Shown here piece by piece: positions 3,806 through 50,016 of a stretch of DNA of 64,000 nucleotides. This DNA comes from Octopus vulgaris. Lineage: Eukaryota. Numbering within the stretch: position 1 is the first letter of the stretch; each line of letters begins with the position of its first letter. Under the pieces are notes generated by a model that was not told where the DNA came from, searched no databases, and was given only the letters and a program-made list of their open reading frames with translations. The translations under genes were made by a program, and so were the position numbers. Where the stretch lies: contig OX597831.1 in NCBI GenBank assembly GCA_951406725.2, forward strand, positions 36,704,001 through 36,768,000, read 5' to 3'.

Positions 3806-4168
3806 CAAATATGCATCAACTCATTGCCCAGCCTCGATTGCTTTACCATAAACATCAAATCTCTTAGGATGGTTGGAACAAGTTCACTTCTCACCTACAG
3901 GTACAGGCCTGGTTGTGTGATTAAGAAATTAGATTTGCAAGAGTGTGATCTTGGGTTTAGTCTCACTGCTTGGCCCTTTTGGCAAGTGTCTTCTACTAAA
4001 GCCGCAGGGTGACCAAAGCCTTGAGAGTAAGTTTGGTAAGCAGAGACTATATGGAGGCCTGTTATATGTGTATGTATGCATGTGCATGTGTGTGTGTGTG
4101 CATGCACACATCTGTTTTGTGTTCTGTGTTAGTCCCTCATTATTGCTTGACAACAGGTTTTGGTTTTA

Positions 4169-4400
4169 CAGTTCTATATTTAAGAGATGAGGAAACATGT
4201 ACATAATTTACATTATTTACATTATTTACATTTGACGGATATTTGTCCTCATCTTGTTTGTTGTTAACACAAAATTTTGGCTGATATATCCTCTAGCCTT
4301 CATCAGGTGCCTTGGGGGATATTTCGAACCTGGGTTCTCATTCCTAAGGTATTTTTCTATGTTGTTGTTTTTGCCGTTGTTGTTGTTATTATCATTATTA

Positions 4401-4442
<42 letters not shown>

Positions 4443-4550
4443 ATTCAGGTCACTGCCTGGAATTGAACTCAGAATCATGGGGTTAGTAGCCCATGCTCTT
4501 AACCACTATGCCATATGTCCGTGGGCATATTATTATTATTCAGTGAACTA

Positions 4551-4609
<59 letters not shown>

Positions 4610-4800
4610 TAATAATAATAATAAGAAGAAGAAGAAGAAGATCGAAAAATACCTTAGGAATGAGAACCCAGGTTCAAAATTTCCTGCAAGGCACCTAATG
4701 AAGGCTGGAGGGTATATCAGATGAAACGTGTTAACAACGAACAAGATGAGGACAAATATCTGTCAAATGTAAATGATGTAAATAAGGTAAATAATGTATT
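4169..4800. mobile_element. Inverted pair of tRNA-head/(TAA)n/hammerhead elements (minus 4169-4530; plus, head-truncated ~4540-4800)
   Basis: Both arms match 37400-37728; HHR cores decayed (4267-4310 minus, ~4691-4731 plus). Confidence 0.8.
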
Positions 4801-9109: not shown

Positions 9110-9970
9110 AGCAGTGGAACTTTTGTTCCATCAAGATGAATTGCTAAAATACAAGTAGCTCTTGCACTTTTATAACCTGTTGAGGCACTTGTCTGTTCAA
9201 TTGTCATTTTAGATCCTTGGCCCATAAATACTGCAGTCTCATCTATAGCAATTATATTGGAGAGATTGTATTTAGAAAAGTCGATGCCATCAACGAAGGA
9301 CTTGAATGCAAGTGCACGTTGAACAACTTCGGCATCTTCCAACTTGAACAGTGTTGTCGATCTCCTTAGAGAGAGCTCATATCACCAATGGGAGTTATCC
9401 AACCAATGAGGTGATGCTTTGAATGTCTCTGTGGGTATATCCAACTGTGGTGCCATTGCAAGAGCAAATTCTTGAATATAAGCCCTGTGTACAATCAAAT
9501 CCTTTGGTTTTTCTGTCAGCAATCCATCCCGAGATGATATCTTCCAGCTCTGAAAATAAGGATTTTCAACCTGTTCCACACCTGCACTTCTTAGCACTTT
9601 CCTCATACACCTGTCTACTGAGATTATCGTACTCTGCTTGCCATTTTCAAACCATTCAGGAATCCAATATCTTCTCCTTGCAGAAAGCCATAAGATTCTT
9701 GTTATGGGACTCTTCCACAATTCCTTTCTTGTACTCCATGCAATATCTCTTTCTTTCTGCACTCATCTTGCCTGGGGACAATGTAGTCAAGCCAAGGAGT
9801 CAACTCCGTGCATGCATGCTTAGCACAGATTTTAGCCAAGCAGTGGTAGTTGGTTTATTTTGCAAACATCACATGGTCTTGCTTTTTGGGGTAGGGCTTA
9901 TAATAAAAACATCCTGAAAAATCATAGCAGAATTATTTTCAGAGTAGATCTTACTTCTGGGGAAATATGG
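9110..9970 (-). mobile_element. Decayed pogo/Tc2-type DNA transposon (N-terminal DBD, CENP-B-like HTH, start of DDE_1)
   Basis: Frameshifted peptides YKKGIVEESHNKNL, LFSELEDIISGWIADRK, FKASPHWLDN, LSLRRST, IIAIDETAVFM; terminus TA|ccatatttcccc. Confidence 0.85.
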
Positions 9971-10055: not shown

Positions 10056-10087
10056 GTGCGTGTGTGTATGTGTATATATATATACAT

Positions 10088-10160
10088 TTAGCATAATGGT
10101 TATCAGCGCGGGCTACTGATCCCAATATCCCAAATTCAATTTCAGGTAGCTCCTTGAATA
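10088..10160 (+). mobile_element. Degenerate tRNA-like head related to the hammerhead element head
   Basis: gcataatggttatcagcgcgggctactgatcccaa...aattcaatttcagg. Confidence 0.55.
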
Positions 10161-13903: not shown

Positions 13904-14215
13904 TCTGGGAGCTTAGTGGTGCTCCTATAATCACCTCTCTTTGGGGCTTTTGTTGCTCTTGGCTTCAGTTTAGTTTGAGGATAGGAGTCCTGGTAGTCAG
14001 TCTTCTCTGGTGATCAGGTGTCCGTGCTAAGCTCAGCATCAATACAGTGGTGGAAAAATGAGCTCATCAGGAGCAGGTTGTTTTAAAGAGAGTCGATTTG
14101 GCCCAGGGTGGAAACACAGCAGGTAAAAGACCCTGTGTCGAACAATAGTGGGATGATGCCTGTGAATAGTTGCCAGCTGGCAGCCTGTTCGATACAACTA
14201 AACACCAAACTCTTT
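13904..14215 (+). ncRNA. RN7SL: 7SL / SRP RNA, full-length copy (probably a pseudogene or retrocopy)
   Basis: Colinear with metazoan 7SL: gatcaggtgtccgtgctaagctcagcatcaata, caggttg, helix 8 ggcccagggtgGAAAcacagcagg, agtgggat...gcctgtgaatag, cagcctg; ~312 nt; helix 6 pairs poorly. Confidence 0.85.
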
Positions 14216-22417: not shown

Positions 22418-22945
22418 ATCATCATCGTCATCATCGTCGTTTAACGTCCGCTTTCAATGCTGGCATGGTTTGGACGGTTTGACTGCAGGCTGGTGAACCA
22501 GAAAGCTGCACAGGCTCCAATCTGATCTACAGCTGGATGCCCTTCCTAATGCCAACCACTCTGAGAGTGTAGTGGGTGCTTTTACGTGCCACCAGCACAA
22601 GGGCCAGTCAGGCGGTTCTGGCAACAACCATGCTCAAAAGGTGTTTTTTACGTGCTATCTGAACGGGAGCCAGTCCGATGGCACTGGCAATGACCATGCA
22701 CGAATGTTGTTTCTTCACGTGCCACCAGCTCATGTACTAGTTAGGCAATGCTGGCAATGACCACACTCGAAATGTGCGTTTTACGTTCCACCAGCATGGG
22801 AGCCAATCAGCAGTCCTGGCAACGATCACACTCGGATGGTGCTTTTAACATTCCACTGACACAAGTGCCAATCAGGCAGTACTGTCATCGACCACGTCTG
22901 TGATTTTGATTTTGGTTTCACTTGCCTCAACAGGTCTTCACAAGT
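22418..22945 (-). mobile_element. RTE LINE 3' UTR with ~65-bp internal tandem repeats
   Basis: (CAT)n tail, gatgcccttcctaatgccaacc, about five acgtgccaccagc...ctggcaatgacca units. Confidence 0.8.
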
Positions 22946-23315
22946 AAACTTTATTATCCAATAAATGAGGGGTACTCATAAGTGGGCTGGTTACACCCAC
23001 TATACCTGTTTATATAATAGATATTGTCAATGCATATACACGTGTGATCGTTTTTACAATGGTTTAAAAATTGGTGTTTTGTATCTCTACACTGCAACCC
23101 ACATTATTAGGTAAATCAGCCTGCTCTCAATAAATAAATGTATATTCGTTCAAAACCTGTTGTTTTCTCACTGACTGTTGGCAACACTTATCTGCATAAT
23201 TTCTGTTAAAATAAATTGGATCCGCTCAGATGGAAACAAACAGTGGTCATTATCGTGTAGCAGCAACATTTCTGCTGTCCCAAATTATTAAGCAGGGGCC
23301 CAATTAAGTGTCATT

Positions 23316-24240
23316 ATGGGTTAGAAACGTAATCTTACCTCGAATGAGAAGTCTACCATCGTATCAGAGCCTGGAAAAGGAAAAACAACCATTGAAACAT
23401 GAAAAATACTGAAATGAGATCACTGAACATTGAAGAAATTTGTGCAGTCTCCTGTTTCTGTCTGGTCGAGGGCAGATAAGGGTGGGTTGAGGGTTGCTTT
23501 GAATTGTACTTTGTCAAGTGTGAAAAGGGAAGTTGTGTGGAACCCATGTCTGATAAGTAGAGAAGTCTTCAAACATTGTGGCAAGGAAGAAGCAGGTAAT
23601 CAAGAATGTTAGACCTGTTACAAGAGCCCCTTCTGAAGGCTTTTCATAAGCAGAAGAGACTGAAATGATCAGAAGAATACATGAAGATAGATTTTTTTAA
23701 ACAGTTCGGTCCACTGACAAATGCTGTACTACCCTTGATAGATCAGATGGCTGGAGTAAAGGTGGGTATCAATCAGTGGGAACCTTCCTCATCGTTTGAA
23801 ACACCAACAGCGGGGCGTTGGGAAGGGTCATGATTTGGACTGGCATCATTGATGATATGATGGTCAGGCAATGGAAAGTCCCAGATAGCATTAAGATGAC
23901 ATCAAAAACATATGTTACCTTCTTAAAAGACAATTTCCAAACGTGGTTCAAAAGGCGAAAACTTTCATTCAAGAGAAAGCTGGTCTTCATACAAAATAAG
24001 GCCTCATCTCATACAGTGAAGAATTCTAAGGAATACCTGCAACAAATAGGCTTCTCTGGAGGTCGTTTGATGGAGTGGTCACCTTGTTCCCTTGACTTAA
24101 ACCCAATTGAGAACCTGTGGAGTGTTGTTAAGCAGGATGTTTACCAAGATGGAAAACAGTTTTCATGTCAAGTTTCCCTCTGGGATGCTATTGTAGATGC
24201 TGCTCAAAGCATGACGCAAGAATCAGCATGTAAGGAAGGT
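23316..24240 (+). pseudogene. Tc1 transposase pseudogene
   Basis: VMIWTGII, FIQNKASSHT, WSPCSLDLNPIENLWSVVK motifs with stops and frameshifts. Confidence 0.9.
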
Positions 24241-24610
24241 TATTGCATGTGGAGGACCATACATCAAACATTAGGAGCTGTGCGACATCATAATCGCATG
24301 ATTATTTTCATTCCAACGTATTATTATGTTTACCATTAAGTTCTTCATGAATAATTTTTTTGTTAAACCTTTACTGTTGAATTAGATAAATGCTTGTTCT
24401 GACACAATTATCATTTTTATTATACTTGCCTGATAATTTGTGATGGGGGAAAATGTTGCCCAATCACGAAAATGGCTGCCATTTGTTGGCATCTGCGCAG
24501 ATCTGATTTATTTTAACAGAATGTGCAAAGATAGGTGTTGCCAACAGTCAATGGGAAAACAAAAGGTTTTGAACGAATATGCATTTATTTATTGAGAAAA
24601 GGTTGATTTT

Positions 24611-25450
24611 CATATGGCGTAGTGGTTAAGAGCATGGGCTACTAACCCCAAGATTCCACGTTCAGTTCCAAGCAGTGACCTGAACAATAACAATAATAAT
24701 AATAATAATATATTTCTTTATTGCCCACAAGGGGCTAAACATAGAGGGGACAAACAAGGACAGGCAAAGGGATTAAGTTGATTACATCGATCCCAGTGCG
24801 AAACTGGTACTTTATTTATCGACCCCGAAAGGACGAAAGGCAAAGTTGACCTCGGCGAAATTTGAACTCAGAACGTAGCGGCAGACGAAATACCACTAAG
24901 CATTTCACCTGGCACGCTAACATTTCTGCCAGCTTGCCGAATAATAATAAAATAGAAATTAGCAAAATGTGAAACTTGAAGACTAAAACAATACCTGCTA
25001 CCTAGCTCAGATATCAGGAAACCCCAAAATGGCAGAAATTCAAAAGATAGTGCCCATATCCTACGCAAAATACTTTCTATGTAATCTCAAGTTTTAAAAC
25101 AAACACATTATTTTCTTATGGTTTCTTAAACATTCTCTAGCACAACACTATGTACAAAACCAAATATATGGTGCCCTAGGCATATCACCAACATGAACTT
25201 TCAACTTGTTGTCTCTTGAGGTCTCTGGGTGAGACTTGGAGTCAACTTGTACAAATGTAACGCAAAAGTCAAACATGAAATAATAATAATAATAATAATA
25301 ACATTGTAAAATACCTTAGGAATGAAAACCCAGGTTCGAAATTTCCGCAAGACACATGATGAAAGCTGGAGGGTATATCAGCCGAAACATTGTGTTAACA
25401 ACAAACAAGATAAGGACAAATATCCGTCAAATGTAAATAATGTAAATAAA
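24611..25450 (+). mobile_element. tRNA-head/hammerhead element with 10-bp TSD, carrying nested SINE B (24712-24940, minus) and a LINE 3' end (24950-25300)
   Basis: aaaggttgat at 24598-24607 and 25448-25457; head 24611-24685; HHR 25352-25395 with C3 mutated. Confidence 0.8.
24950..25300 (+). mobile_element. R4/Dong-like LINE 3' end inserted in (TAA)n
   Basis: PKMAEIQK...AHILRKILSM* resembles the C-terminus of RLE-type LINEs; 3' UTR gaggtctctgggtgagacttgga; ends in (TAA)n. Confidence 0.55.
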
Positions 25451-25483
25451 GGTTGATATGCCTAATAATTTGGGGTGCAGTGT

Positions 25484-33470: not shown

Positions 33471-33634
33471 TGCCTGGTTGGTATGTAAAAATTTAAATAT
33501 GATTTTGTTGTTTCATTTAATCATGAGATATTGTAGACATGACTCAGCAGACAGGTTTAACTACATTCAGAAGTGAAGCCCTCCACAAAATTTTAACAAC
33601 AAATAAATCACACACACACACACACAGATGTATG

Positions 33635-34092
33635 TATAAAATTGCAGTGTGGAAGATGTTTGTAAGCCATTTAAGGAATACACAAAAACTATTAGTTTCA
33701 CAGCCCGCACTGTTAACCCTTATGCCATATGCTTGTGGGCTTAGGAGGTTTTGCTTTTTCTAGTACCTGTCTCACTTTCCACCTTAGTTCATCTCCCTGA
33801 GCTTTTGGTATCTTTATGGTTTTCTCACGGGCATATGGCATAGTGGTTAATTTTAATTTGTGTGAAAATATTTTCATCACTTTGAAACTGCAGCTTCGAA
33901 GTTTTGTCAGTGAACAGGTCGTGGTTTCAAAGCAGTGAAAATATTTTGATACAAGTTGAATTTAAATGTTGAAGTGAAACTAACGGTTTTTGTGTGTTCC
34001 TTAAATTGTTTACAAACATTTTCCATACTGCACTTGTTTTTGTTCCAGCACATGATGTCAGACCAAGTCACTTGCTATGTAAGTACATCTCC
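33635..34092. mobile_element. Rearranged copy of the 7805-8010 repeat containing the head-spacer-head core of the tRNA/HHR element (33700-33850)
   Basis: 33635-33700 is the reverse complement of ~7945-8010; 33900-34090 matches parts of 7805-8005; 33700-33850 matches 37271-37426. Confidence 0.75.
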
Positions 34093-35753: not shown

Positions 35754-36384
35754 CATGTATTTGTGCATGTATATATATTTATATATACATGCTTACACAC
35801 ACACATATATGCATATTTGTTTATATATATGCACACACATACATATCTGTTTATCGACCTATCCGAATGTATGTATGAATGTATGTATGTATGTATGTAT
35901 GTATGTATGTATGTATGTATGTATGTATGTATGTATTCATTGATCATTTATATAGAAAAAATGAAATAACCAATGTTTTTATTTACGAGTATTTTGAGTG
36001 AAAGTCATTTTCTGATTATTTTCTATGTTTTCCATTTAGTAAATATAGAGAATTCATGTATTTTTTTTTTGCCTATTTTAGTTTCCAAGATTCAATATTT
36101 ATCACATGCATTATTTAAATGTCCACCCATCTATATACACTAACCAGGTTTTACCTGGAATCGAGAATTTTCAGCACATCAGATAAGAAAACCTTACAAT
36201 ATTTTCCCCAGCTCTTTACGTTCTGAGTTCAAATCTAACCAAGCTGAAATTCGCTTTTCACCCCGACTACTAACCATAGTATAACAGTAACAGTCAAAAA
36301 TTGAAGCTGATAAAATTGACTGCTATTTTTAGCTCCTCTCAAAATTGCTCACCTTGTACTTAAATTCAAAACAATTATTAAACC

Positions 36385-36561
36385 CATTATTTACATTATT
36401 TACATTTGACAGATATTTGTCCTCATCTTGTTTGTTGTTAACACAACATTTCGGCTGATAGACCCTCCAGCTTTCATCAGGTGTCTTGGGGAAATTTCAA
36501 ACCTGGGTTCTCATTCCTAAGGTATTTTTCAATGTTATTATTTTTATTATTATTATTAATA

Positions 36562-36622
<61 letters not shown>

Positions 36623-37157
36623 CATTATTATTATTGAGTGAGAGAGCAGTGCATGCCATCAAAATGACACTGGGGTAAAATATACGAAGCCCAGTATACC
36701 TATCATGACTACCCATCTGATAAGGTTACACTAGGCACATGCATCACAACCATATGTGCGCGACATGGTGATCTCATATCAAGATAAACAGCACATGACC
36801 TTGCAGGTGGGGCCCAATTAGAATTATCTGGTCAAGTAACTCATCCTGCTCAAAAGGTCCCTGAATAAGGGTTGTTTAAGGATGTTGAATGAAACACCCA
36901 TGTTTCCAAAGGGGAATTATTCAAACCCCAAAGAATCACACTCAACACATGGCTATGATGCTCCCCCACTACTTCTGCTTATGATCAGAGATGCACATAT
37001 CGTCAGCCACCAAGGAACAGGCTCAACTGGTTAAAGTCAAACACCTGACAAGCAAATCTGTGGTATTGAGCAGAATATTTGCTGTAGCCTATCTTTTATA
37101 CCAACACAAAACAATGTAAATGATAACACTTCCAATCAGTTAAGTTATTTTAACCAC

Positions 37158-37219
<62 letters not shown>

Positions 37220-37310
37220 GTTATTGTTCAGGTCACTGCTTGGAATTGAACTAGGAATATTGGGGTTAGTAGCCCGCACTGTTAACCCTTATGCCACATG
37301 CTTGTGGGCT
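36385..37310 (-). mobile_element. tRNA-head/HHR element split by a ~500-bp unclassified insertion (36636-37160) in its (TAA)n linker
   Basis: Tail with HHR at 36441-36484; head at 37227-37310. Confidence 0.8.
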
Positions 37311-37399
37311 TAGGAGGTTTTGCTTTTCCTAGTACCTGTCTTACTTTCCCCCTTAGTTCATCTCCCTGAGCTTTTGGTATCTTTATGGTTTTCTCTTAT

Positions 37400-37511
37400 G
37401 CCCACGGGCATATGGCATAGTGGTTAAGAGTGCAGGCTACTAACACCAAGGTTCCAAGTTGGATTCCAAGCAGTGACCTGAACAATAACAATAACAATTA
37501 CGATAATAATC

Positions 37512-37547
<36 letters not shown>

Positions 37548-37728
37548 TTGAAAAATATTTTAGGAATGAGAACCCAGATTCGAAATTTCCCCAAGACACC
37601 TGAAGAAAGCTGCAGGGTATATCAGCTGAAACGTTGTGTTAACAACAAACAAGATGGGGACAAATATCTGTTGAATGTAAATAATGTAAATAATGTACAT
37701 AATTCCGCATCCCTTAAATATAGAACTG
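37400..37728 (+). mobile_element. Best copy of the tRNA-like head + (TAA)n + hammerhead element
   Basis: A box tggcatagtgg, ctactaa loop, B-box-like gttggattcc, TAA run, HHR, (aatgtaaat)n. Confidence 0.85.
37596..37639 (+). ncRNA. Minimal type I hammerhead ribozyme motif, core intact
   Basis: acac-CTGAAGA-a-agctg-cagggtatat-cagct-GAAAC-GTT-gtgt; loopless palindromic stem III (AACGTT). Confidence 0.75.
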
Positions 37729-37738
37729 AATTATTAAA

Positions 37739-37947
37739 CCCCTTAGCATTCAGATTATTCTTTTCTATGTTCTTGTTTATTTATTCACATTCGTTTTAAT
37801 TAACCATGCTTTCAAATTTCAATGATATGATTATTTAAGCTTAAAATGTAATAGTAGAATAGGTGTGAGAGGCTGCATCTGGCTGGTTTGAATGTAGAAC
37901 AGATAGAATATTAGGGCCTGATATGGTCAGTTTAAATGCTAAAGGAC
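37739..37947. mobile_element. piggyBac-like MITE
   Basis: TTAA near both ends; ccttagcatt / aatgctaaagg imperfect TIRs. Confidence 0.55.
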
Positions 37948-49249: not shown

Positions 49250-50016
49250 TCTGTAAGGTCCCAAACTGGACTATGCTTTAAGTGCTTGTTAGGTACAGCA
49301 GTCTTCATGTAAGTGCTTGAAACATCTCGAGGACCGTCTGCAATTCACTCTGGATTAAAATGATGACCTTTGAGCTGTATTTTCATCTTGGTGAAGAGAT
49401 GGGAGTCTGCAGGCACTAAATTTGGTGAATAGGCTGGGTGCAGAAGTGATACCATGTTGATTTGGGTGAGGAAAGTTTGGTAAAGAATCCAGTTCTTTGC
49501 ACTCCACAGATCCAGTTGCTTTTGTCGAATGTCCTCCATCAGGCACTTCAAAACATCGCAGTAGAACTCTGAATTGATGATCTGGCCGTGGAAGATAAAT
49601 TCCTGATGCACAATACCACATTCTCAGGGGTGACGCTTGTGGTAGAGCTTCCAGATTGCCCATTGTCTTTCAGTGATTTTCTTCTACTTTGGAAGCACCC
49701 ATGCTGCTCAGAACGTAGTGTACCACCCTTTGCCTCATCACTGTAAGCTTGCCAAAGCATGCTTAATGTCTCCGTAGCAGACTTCCTAAGTTTAACACAA
49801 AATTTCCATTTTCCTGTCCATGACAAAAATCGCAGACTATAGCATATATGTGATAACAAAAACACAAATTTTACAACTTGCAAAGTAAATACAGTAAATA
49901 CACTTGGCACACGGCCTCATGGAGGTCACTGCTAGCTCTCACTATGCCCACAATTATGTGCCATAATCTGTTGGCACACTACAGAACTAGTCAGGGTATT
50001 TTTGAAAGCCACCTCA
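49250..50016 (-). mobile_element. Internally deleted mariner transposon
   Basis: KFCVKLRKSATETLSMLWQAY, INSEFYCDVLKCL, HPAYSPNLVPADSHLFTKMK (YSPDL motif); TA-flanked end at 50016. Confidence 0.88.

Follow-up and report, generated by a model that had tools for sequence, protein, structure and literature searches.

The Interrupted Transposon

The window analyzed here is the whole stretch of 64,000 nucleotides of Octopus vulgaris DNA, numbered from its first letter. At the locus under study, the right TIR of a decayed DNA transposon is interrupted by a unit with a tRNA-like head, a TAA linker and a minimal hammerhead motif, and the linker is itself split by two further pieces. The features are as follows.

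23090-25482, plus strand: decayed host DNA transposon of Tc1/mariner-like type, about 1.54 kb once the insert is subtracted
23090-23294, plus strand: left TIR, about 205 bp, used as a stand-in for the empty site
23800-24336, plus strand: transposase remnant (DDE_3, E 3e-7, 30.8 bits, above the Pfam cut-off of 28.6)
24427-24609, plus strand: inner part of the right TIR, with the left copy of the duplication at its end
24598-24609, plus strand: target-site duplication, left copy (exact 10 bp at 24598-24607; 12 bp with one mismatch)
24610-24684, plus strand: tRNA-like head with about 9 bases missing from the 5' end (A box at 24615-24625, B box at 24660-24668)
24685-24710, plus strand: (AAC/AAT)n linker, 5' piece
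24711-24939, presumably minus strand: inserted second repeat, called SINE B in the sequence-only reading that preceded this analysis
24949-25278, plus strand: inserted 330-base piece, then TAA repeats
25279-25300, plus strand: (AAT)n linker, 3' piece
25301-25350, plus strand: conserved body ahead of the hammerhead
25351-25396, plus strand: minimal type I hammerhead motif, predicted cut before 25392
25397-25449, plus strand: AC-rich 3' part without the optional tail, its end a 9-base tandem repeat
25448-25459, plus strand: target-site duplication, right copy (exact 10 bp at 25448-25457)
25460-25482, plus strand: right TIR, outer part

The host has a DDE transposase (DDE_3) and long TIRs, as expected of a Tc1/mariner element, and it ends in TA at the left but in TT at the right. 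In its transposase, 37 residues separate the position of the second aspartate from the glutamate, a spacing known from the TRT (DD37E) group and not from classic Tc1 (DD34E). The sole protein match of the transposase (one of ten candidates) is from Octopus bimaculoides. We compared the window with public contigs from four of 24 sequencing runs, in which contig depth is not read as copy number; the host is multi-copy in all four. No RNA run was among those listed. Elsewhere in the window, two minus-strand segments (9385-9762 and 49348-49623) give weak, sub-cut-off Pfam matches to the Tc5 DNA-binding domain and Transposase_1, and are presumably further DNA-transposon remnants. The window also contains a full-length match to the metazoan SRP (7SL) RNA (13904-14214, plus strand, 115 bits) and, at 22580-22909, a tandem array within another repeat family, its four to five units being about 66 bases long and 62-74% alike.

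The Target-Site Duplication

The sequence-only reading had claimed that the unit breaks the right TIR and is bounded on both sides by the same 10-mer, and both points hold. AAAGGTTGAT is found exactly at 24598-24607 and at 25448-25457, with no exact extension on either side; these are its 2 occurrences in the 64-kb window, where the minus strand has 0. The left TIR aligns to 24427-24609 (79%, 185 columns) and again to 25450-25483 (85%, 34 columns, E 5e-5), and excising the 850 bases between the 10-mers restores a right TIR that is continuous against the left TIR (175 of 224 columns). Among the three cuts tried, the best remove 24610-25459 or 24611-25460 (score 221 versus 217 for the 10-bp cut), which would make the duplication 12 or 13 bp long, mismatches included. 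A length of 12 bp with one mismatch is therefore the probable one, AAAGGTTGATTT and AAAGGTTGATAT, where the left TIR has GCAGGCTGATTT. In the right copy, the first two A's could instead be part of the 3' repeat of the element.

How well does the left TIR represent the site before insertion? It had been put forward as the pre-insertion sequence, and it does match both flanks, but it agrees with the duplicated 10-mer in 7 of 10 letters and so is no more than an approximation of the empty site. Of the three differences, one is confined to the window copy: family contigs have a T at 23123 (25-41 contigs per run in all four runs), in agreement with the duplicated sequence. By chance, an anchored match of at least 10 bases arises in about 0.1% of some 19,900 random window pairs, and a match with the real upstream flank arose in 4 of up to 20,000 draws. 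Two contigs of the Tc1 family cease matching at 24603 and 24609 (among 32 of about 624,000 pieces listed), and no empty-site joint is present among the 15 of 1009 contig joints listed for the four runs.

The Focal Copy and Its Linker

In the focal copy, about 9 bases of the head are missing, as is the optional 33-base tail described below. The sequence-only reading placed a SINE B and an R4/Dong-like 3' end in its TAA linker as later arrivals. Both inserts are indeed there, and they presumably came after the element, because other copies have an unbroken linker. BLAST finds 18 further pieces of the first (24711-24939) within the window, of which three are nearly full length (84-86%). The second (24949-25278) has no second copy within the window. 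Its short broken peptides resemble, in our judgment, the C-terminal, restriction-like endonuclease end of R4/Dong proteins, a similarity that the searches left without support: the word-index search gave no match, and the full search gave only a chance repeat protein.

The TAA tract is a repeated insertion target, since a second copy in the window (36386-37310) was also struck in its linker. The insert in that copy is an unrelated 525-base element (36636-37160), single in the window. A joint between 24877 and 25449 occurs in 17 contigs and in all four runs (among the 15 of 1009 joints listed); it sets the 3' end of the hammerhead element against SINE B, in opposite orientation and at one place, and reflects either a shared nested insertion or a preferred site. 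We read the focal copy, with confidence somewhat above even, as a single, slightly 5'-truncated and tail-less product in a TIR of the Tc1-like host, later hit twice in its TAA linker.

Sister Copies in the Window

Do the head and the hammerhead belong to one element? The hammerhead half is present in five copies in the 64 kb, 87-93% alike. The four copies besides the focal one form two pairs, A and B, and a fragment, C, shares the centre of pair B.

4167-4530, minus strand: pair A, full copy that has both the tail and a 5' palindrome
4541-4797, plus strand: pair A, 5'-truncated and tail-less copy, back to back with the full copy
33702-33850, no strand assigned: fragment C, a back-to-back set of two partial heads with the pair B spacer, in the arm of an inverted-repeat element
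36373-36385, plus strand: pair B, 13-bp duplication, left copy
36386-37310, minus strand: pair B, tail-less copy, TAA linker split by the 525-base insert
37311-37400, no strand assigned: pair B, 90-base spacer between the two heads, recurring at 33742-33826 (96%)
37401-37728, plus strand: pair B, full unbroken copy, hammerhead core and helix III palindrome intact (33-base tail at 37696-37728)
37729-37741, plus strand: pair B, 13-bp duplication, right copy

Head, TAA linker and hammerhead run unbroken in two of the five copies (4167-4530 minus and 37401-37728 plus). In two others, the focal copy and 36386-37310 (minus), head and hammerhead lie in the same orientation astride a linker insert, and the remaining one (4541-4797) starts in the final bases of the head. 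Part by part, the focal copy is 86-90% identical to the two whole copies. The unit is about 330 bases long, non-coding, dispersed and multi-copy, and contigs cover it in all four runs; a head-to-hammerhead joint is absent from the 15 of 1009 contig joints listed for those runs. These findings support the view that head and hammerhead are one element, which would have been inserted by a target-primed route, because the sister copies run from head through linker to hammerhead without a break; this is stronger proof than the duplication. The sequence-only reading had reached the same conclusion from the focal copy, and we amend it as to the route, which appears to be of Penelope type, not ordinary LINE type.

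Heads match at seven places in the window: four in hammerhead units, two as cut pieces in fragment C and one at 10085. The last (10085-10158, plus strand) is a diverged head, about 70% alike to the family and without the hammerhead half; it may be an older relative or belong to another SINE family. In the inverted-repeat (MITE-like) element at 33630-34040, one arm is broken by the 150-base head-spacer-head piece of fragment C without a duplication, and the piece looks like a templated patch. A pattern scan gave 0 further copies in viral contigs and 0 in metagenome contigs (done twice). In prokaryote genomes, 8 loci have an 18-base match and nothing extends beyond 18-28 bases; we took these as chance.

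The tRNA-Like Head and the Hammerhead

The A and B boxes of the head are 45 bases apart. A strict A-box plus B-box pattern, whose consensus we assumed from general knowledge, has two matches in the window, both in heads (two of the four full heads), with a mean of 0.005 in 200 shuffles; looser A and B boxes are found in all four full heads. ARAGORN reports no tRNA in the window, and the best match of a head to the Rfam tRNA model, that of a sister and not of the focal copy, reaches 14 bits against a threshold of 29 (E 1.2). For this reason, the label "tRNA-like" is used here on the strength of the A and B boxes together with the weak Rfam match. The starts of the four heads, just ahead of the A box, differ by no more than about 9 bases, and the sequences upstream are unrelated. 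A 5' palindrome is present in two of the three heads that retain their 5' end, and each of two full copies has one TTTT run, at differing positions.

A descriptor of the minimal hammerhead, with one core mismatch allowed, gives four hits in the 64 kb, all in copies of the family. Two are perfect and two have one mismatch, while eight shuffles gave 0 perfect hits and 0-1 one-mismatch hits each; the fifth copy is more damaged. The core is intact in two of the five copies. The family hammerhead has a helix I of 5 bp, an extra base between positions 9 and 10.1 and no helix III, and in the best copy a palindrome at 15.2-16.2 takes the place of helix III. In the account available to us, the minimal hammerheads of metazoan Penelope-type elements (PLEs) likewise have a 5-bp helix I, the extra base between 9 and 10.1 and a palindromic 15.2-16.2 (Cervera and de la Pena 2014, PMC4209133). 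The same source describes for the minimal hammerhead of PLEs no cleavage of monomers and low cleavage of dimers.

In the focal copy, core position C3 is an A and the palindrome of helix III is broken, so that its ribozyme is probably dead; an active ribozyme in the focal copy was rejected, the core being mutated. The Rfam hammerhead models have no match at gathering or E-value thresholds. In free folding the hammerhead is not the best structure (-8.3 versus -8.4 kcal/mol for its two-helix form in the best copy), and covariation over the five hammerheads, one row of which is misaligned, is no greater than in shuffles (450 of 500 shuffles were as high).

Marks of Insertion

The 3' ends are of two kinds. 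In three of the five copies the end falls among 9-base repeats, 56-70 bases beyond the predicted cut; the other two copies share an extension of 33-34 bases, 88% alike. With its minimal hammerhead, AC-rich stretch and optional 33-base tail, the 3' half looks like the pseudo-LTR end of a PLE. Four of the five copies form the two head-to-head pairs, and exactly one arm carries the extension in both pairs. The 13-bp duplication flanks pair B as a whole, with none around either arm alone. Duplications of at least 7 bases were absent around pair A, around the single arms of A or B and around fragment C; two of the three insertion units thus have a target-site duplication (10-12 bp and 13 bp), pair A being the one without. 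Similar arrangements are present in the public contigs: among the 15 of 1009 joints listed, seven contigs from two of the four runs join the head start at 24611 with a copy on the opposite strand that is cut at 25365, and one contig row has an inverted piece of head ahead of the head. At 33702-33850 the centre of pair B is found again (96-97%), the 90-base spacer and both head starts included. Accordingly, pair B may have been copied from an older composite instead of being built at insertion, and because its centre recurs in fragment C it is weaker as an independent product of insertion.

PLEs are described as having inverted 5'-truncated copies, with a tail of 30-40 bp usually on one end, duplications of 8-10 bp around the whole unit, and 5' palindromes (bioRxiv 2021.04.23.441226, PMC3846280; as far as the available accounts go). 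In an in vitro study, also available in part, the tail was shown to be the segment separating two internal start sites for reverse transcription, and uncut RNA was the main template (PMC11167929). The insertion marks in the window suggest priming of this Penelope type and not of the ordinary LINE type. No Pfam match to an RT or GIY-YIG family was found in the 145 long reading frames of the window, and an autonomous PLE at the locus was rejected, the unit being 330 bases long and without an RT or GIY-YIG frame.

Our preferred reading, to which we give a probability of about 0.6, is that the unit is a tRNA-headed SINE that would be moved in trans by a PLE protein, its hammerhead remaining silent in monomers; a point against this reading is that five copies are few. 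All the PLE marks would fit equally well if the copies were pseudo-LTRs, solo or truncated, from an autonomous PLE that happens to have the tRNA-like piece in its pseudo-LTR, and were by-products rather than a self-propagating SINE. In the sources available to us, the 5' palindrome is a feature of pseudo-LTRs, and most genomic minimal hammerheads are single and thought to be truncated PLEs (PMC4209133). What makes this alternative unlikely is that the four heads begin within about 9 bases of one another, right ahead of the A box, with unrelated sequence upstream, that no copy in the window continues into a coding frame, and that the public contigs break at 24611 too.

Tandem 3' repeats, duplications of 10-13 bp and 5' truncation characterize target-primed insertion in general, and tandem 3' repeats and inverted 5' ends are also found in LINE-driven elements. 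The tandem 9-mer, the duplications and the truncation of the copies described here would thus suit an ordinary LINE-driven SINE that had captured a PLE fragment and carried the hammerhead as a passenger, as would the absence of a signal of selection on the hammerhead in five copies. It is hard to reconcile such a SINE with a tail on one arm in both pairs and a duplication around a whole pair, and the tail of PLEs is described, in the account available, as absent from target-primed insertion of the non-LTR kind; we regard this explanation as improbable.

Spread as a retrozyme, by circular RNA from hammerhead cleavage of tandem copies, would agree with the type I hammerhead and with the scale of 150-300 bases given for metazoan retrozymes in the available descriptions, and one contig row joins 25445 back to 24611 (among the joints listed). 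However, none of the five window copies is in a head-to-tail tandem, the copies are not permuted at the cut site, and the hammerhead is in the middle of the element. A non-LTR retrozyme was rejected for want of a tandem of hammerhead units among the five window copies, and this route seems very improbable. Least credible of all is a chance juxtaposition, with head and hammerhead inserted separately and the 10-mer coincidental or already doubled in the Tc1 family: in its favor is the missing empty-site joint among those listed, and it was rejected on the continuity of the TIR across the insert, the single motif in the left TIR, the chance rate of about 0.1% and the two unbroken sister copies, to which the two Tc1-family contigs that cease matching near the duplication may be added.

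A Possible Route of Propagation

For the preferred SINE moved by a PLE protein, we infer the polymerase, the enzyme, the behavior of the ribozyme and the order of events from the anatomy of the copies, as follows. RNA polymerase III would transcribe the element from the tRNA-like head. As the hammerhead has no helix III, the single RNA would stay mostly uncut, and the head and the 3' end would travel together. A PLE protein would bind the 3' half in trans and nick AT-rich DNA, and reverse transcription would begin at one of two internal sites. The expected outcome would be copies that end in the 9-base repeats or one tail-length further, found as single copies with a duplication of 10-13 bp and as head-to-head pairs. 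The head-to-head composite with its fixed 90-base spacer may itself have been propagated, given its presence in both pair B and fragment C. It may have spread, for example, by the annealing over the spacer of two cDNAs made from opposite transcripts.

More tentatively, and at less than even odds, the unit might represent an abundant octopus SINE whose partner is a PLE and not a LINE, built from a Pol III tRNA head and a 3' end of pseudo-LTR type with two start sites of reverse transcription.

Relation to Known Elements

SINEs are normally defined as parasites of LINEs. The element described here works like a non-autonomous PLE with a SINE head, and its membership of either class hangs on its partner. 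The closest precedents are the schistosome Sm-alpha element and the non-autonomous PLEs. In the descriptions available to us, Sm-alpha and Sj-alpha have a tRNA-related promoter followed by a hammerhead and occur as tandem units. Compared by description, the octopus element shares with Sm-alpha the order of tRNA-related promoter and type I hammerhead and a very high copy number. However, Sm-alpha is described as tandem units freed by cleavage, with single copies that lose the promoter, whereas the octopus copies are dispersed or head to head; in addition, the octopus hammerhead is of the minimal PLE type and lies mid-element, with a PLE-type tail after it.

The likeness to PLEs, as far as the published descriptions available to us extend, comprises the minimal hammerhead, the tail of 30-40 bases on one end, the head-to-head pairs, the duplication around the whole unit, the 5' palindrome and the AT-rich targets (PMC4209133, PMC3846280, PMC11167929, bioRxiv 2021.04.23.441226). 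Unlike PLEs, the octopus unit has no RT or GIY-YIG frame and no direct tandem of pseudo-LTRs, and it carries a tRNA-like head with A and B boxes in front. Non-autonomous PLEs (Chlamys/MRC1) and animal retrozymes are, in the accounts at hand, similarly short, non-coding, hammerhead- or pLTR-bearing and thought to be moved by PLEs, but they are defined as tandem repeats, unlike the octopus unit. It has been argued that animal retrozymes are PLE derivatives of a non-autonomous kind (bioRxiv 10.64898/2026.07.22.740005); the main text of that preprint, in the part available, mentions neither tRNA nor polymerase III, molluscs or octopus.

SINEs are the main class of repeats in octopus according to the available literature, and three octopus tRNA-derived SINEs, OK, OR1 and OR2, have been described (Ohshima and Okada 1994), OR1 and OR2 being cited as CORE-SINEs. 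Like these, the element described here is a short, tRNA-derived octopus repeat; the comparison is by description, and the element could be identical to one of them, although the descriptions available give no hammerhead or Penelope link for OK, OR1 or OR2. In the literature covered, mostly open papers and without Repbase or Dfam, we found neither a PLE-driven tRNA SINE nor an octopus hammerhead SINE, and the available portions of repeat papers on cephalopods, molluscs and butterflies describe no such SINE. A family this common has probably already been catalogued under some name.

By itself, the single duplication from which the sequence-only reading started is ordinary. If the element is PLE-driven, the rule on the partners of SINEs would be widened, and a new class of partner would be added if no SINE-PLE partnership is on record. 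The element would also provide a natural, high-copy substrate of 330 bases for mapping the cis-sequences that a PLE protein requires, and its many genomic copies could test both the model of PLE insertion from two start sites and the purpose of the minimal hammerhead.
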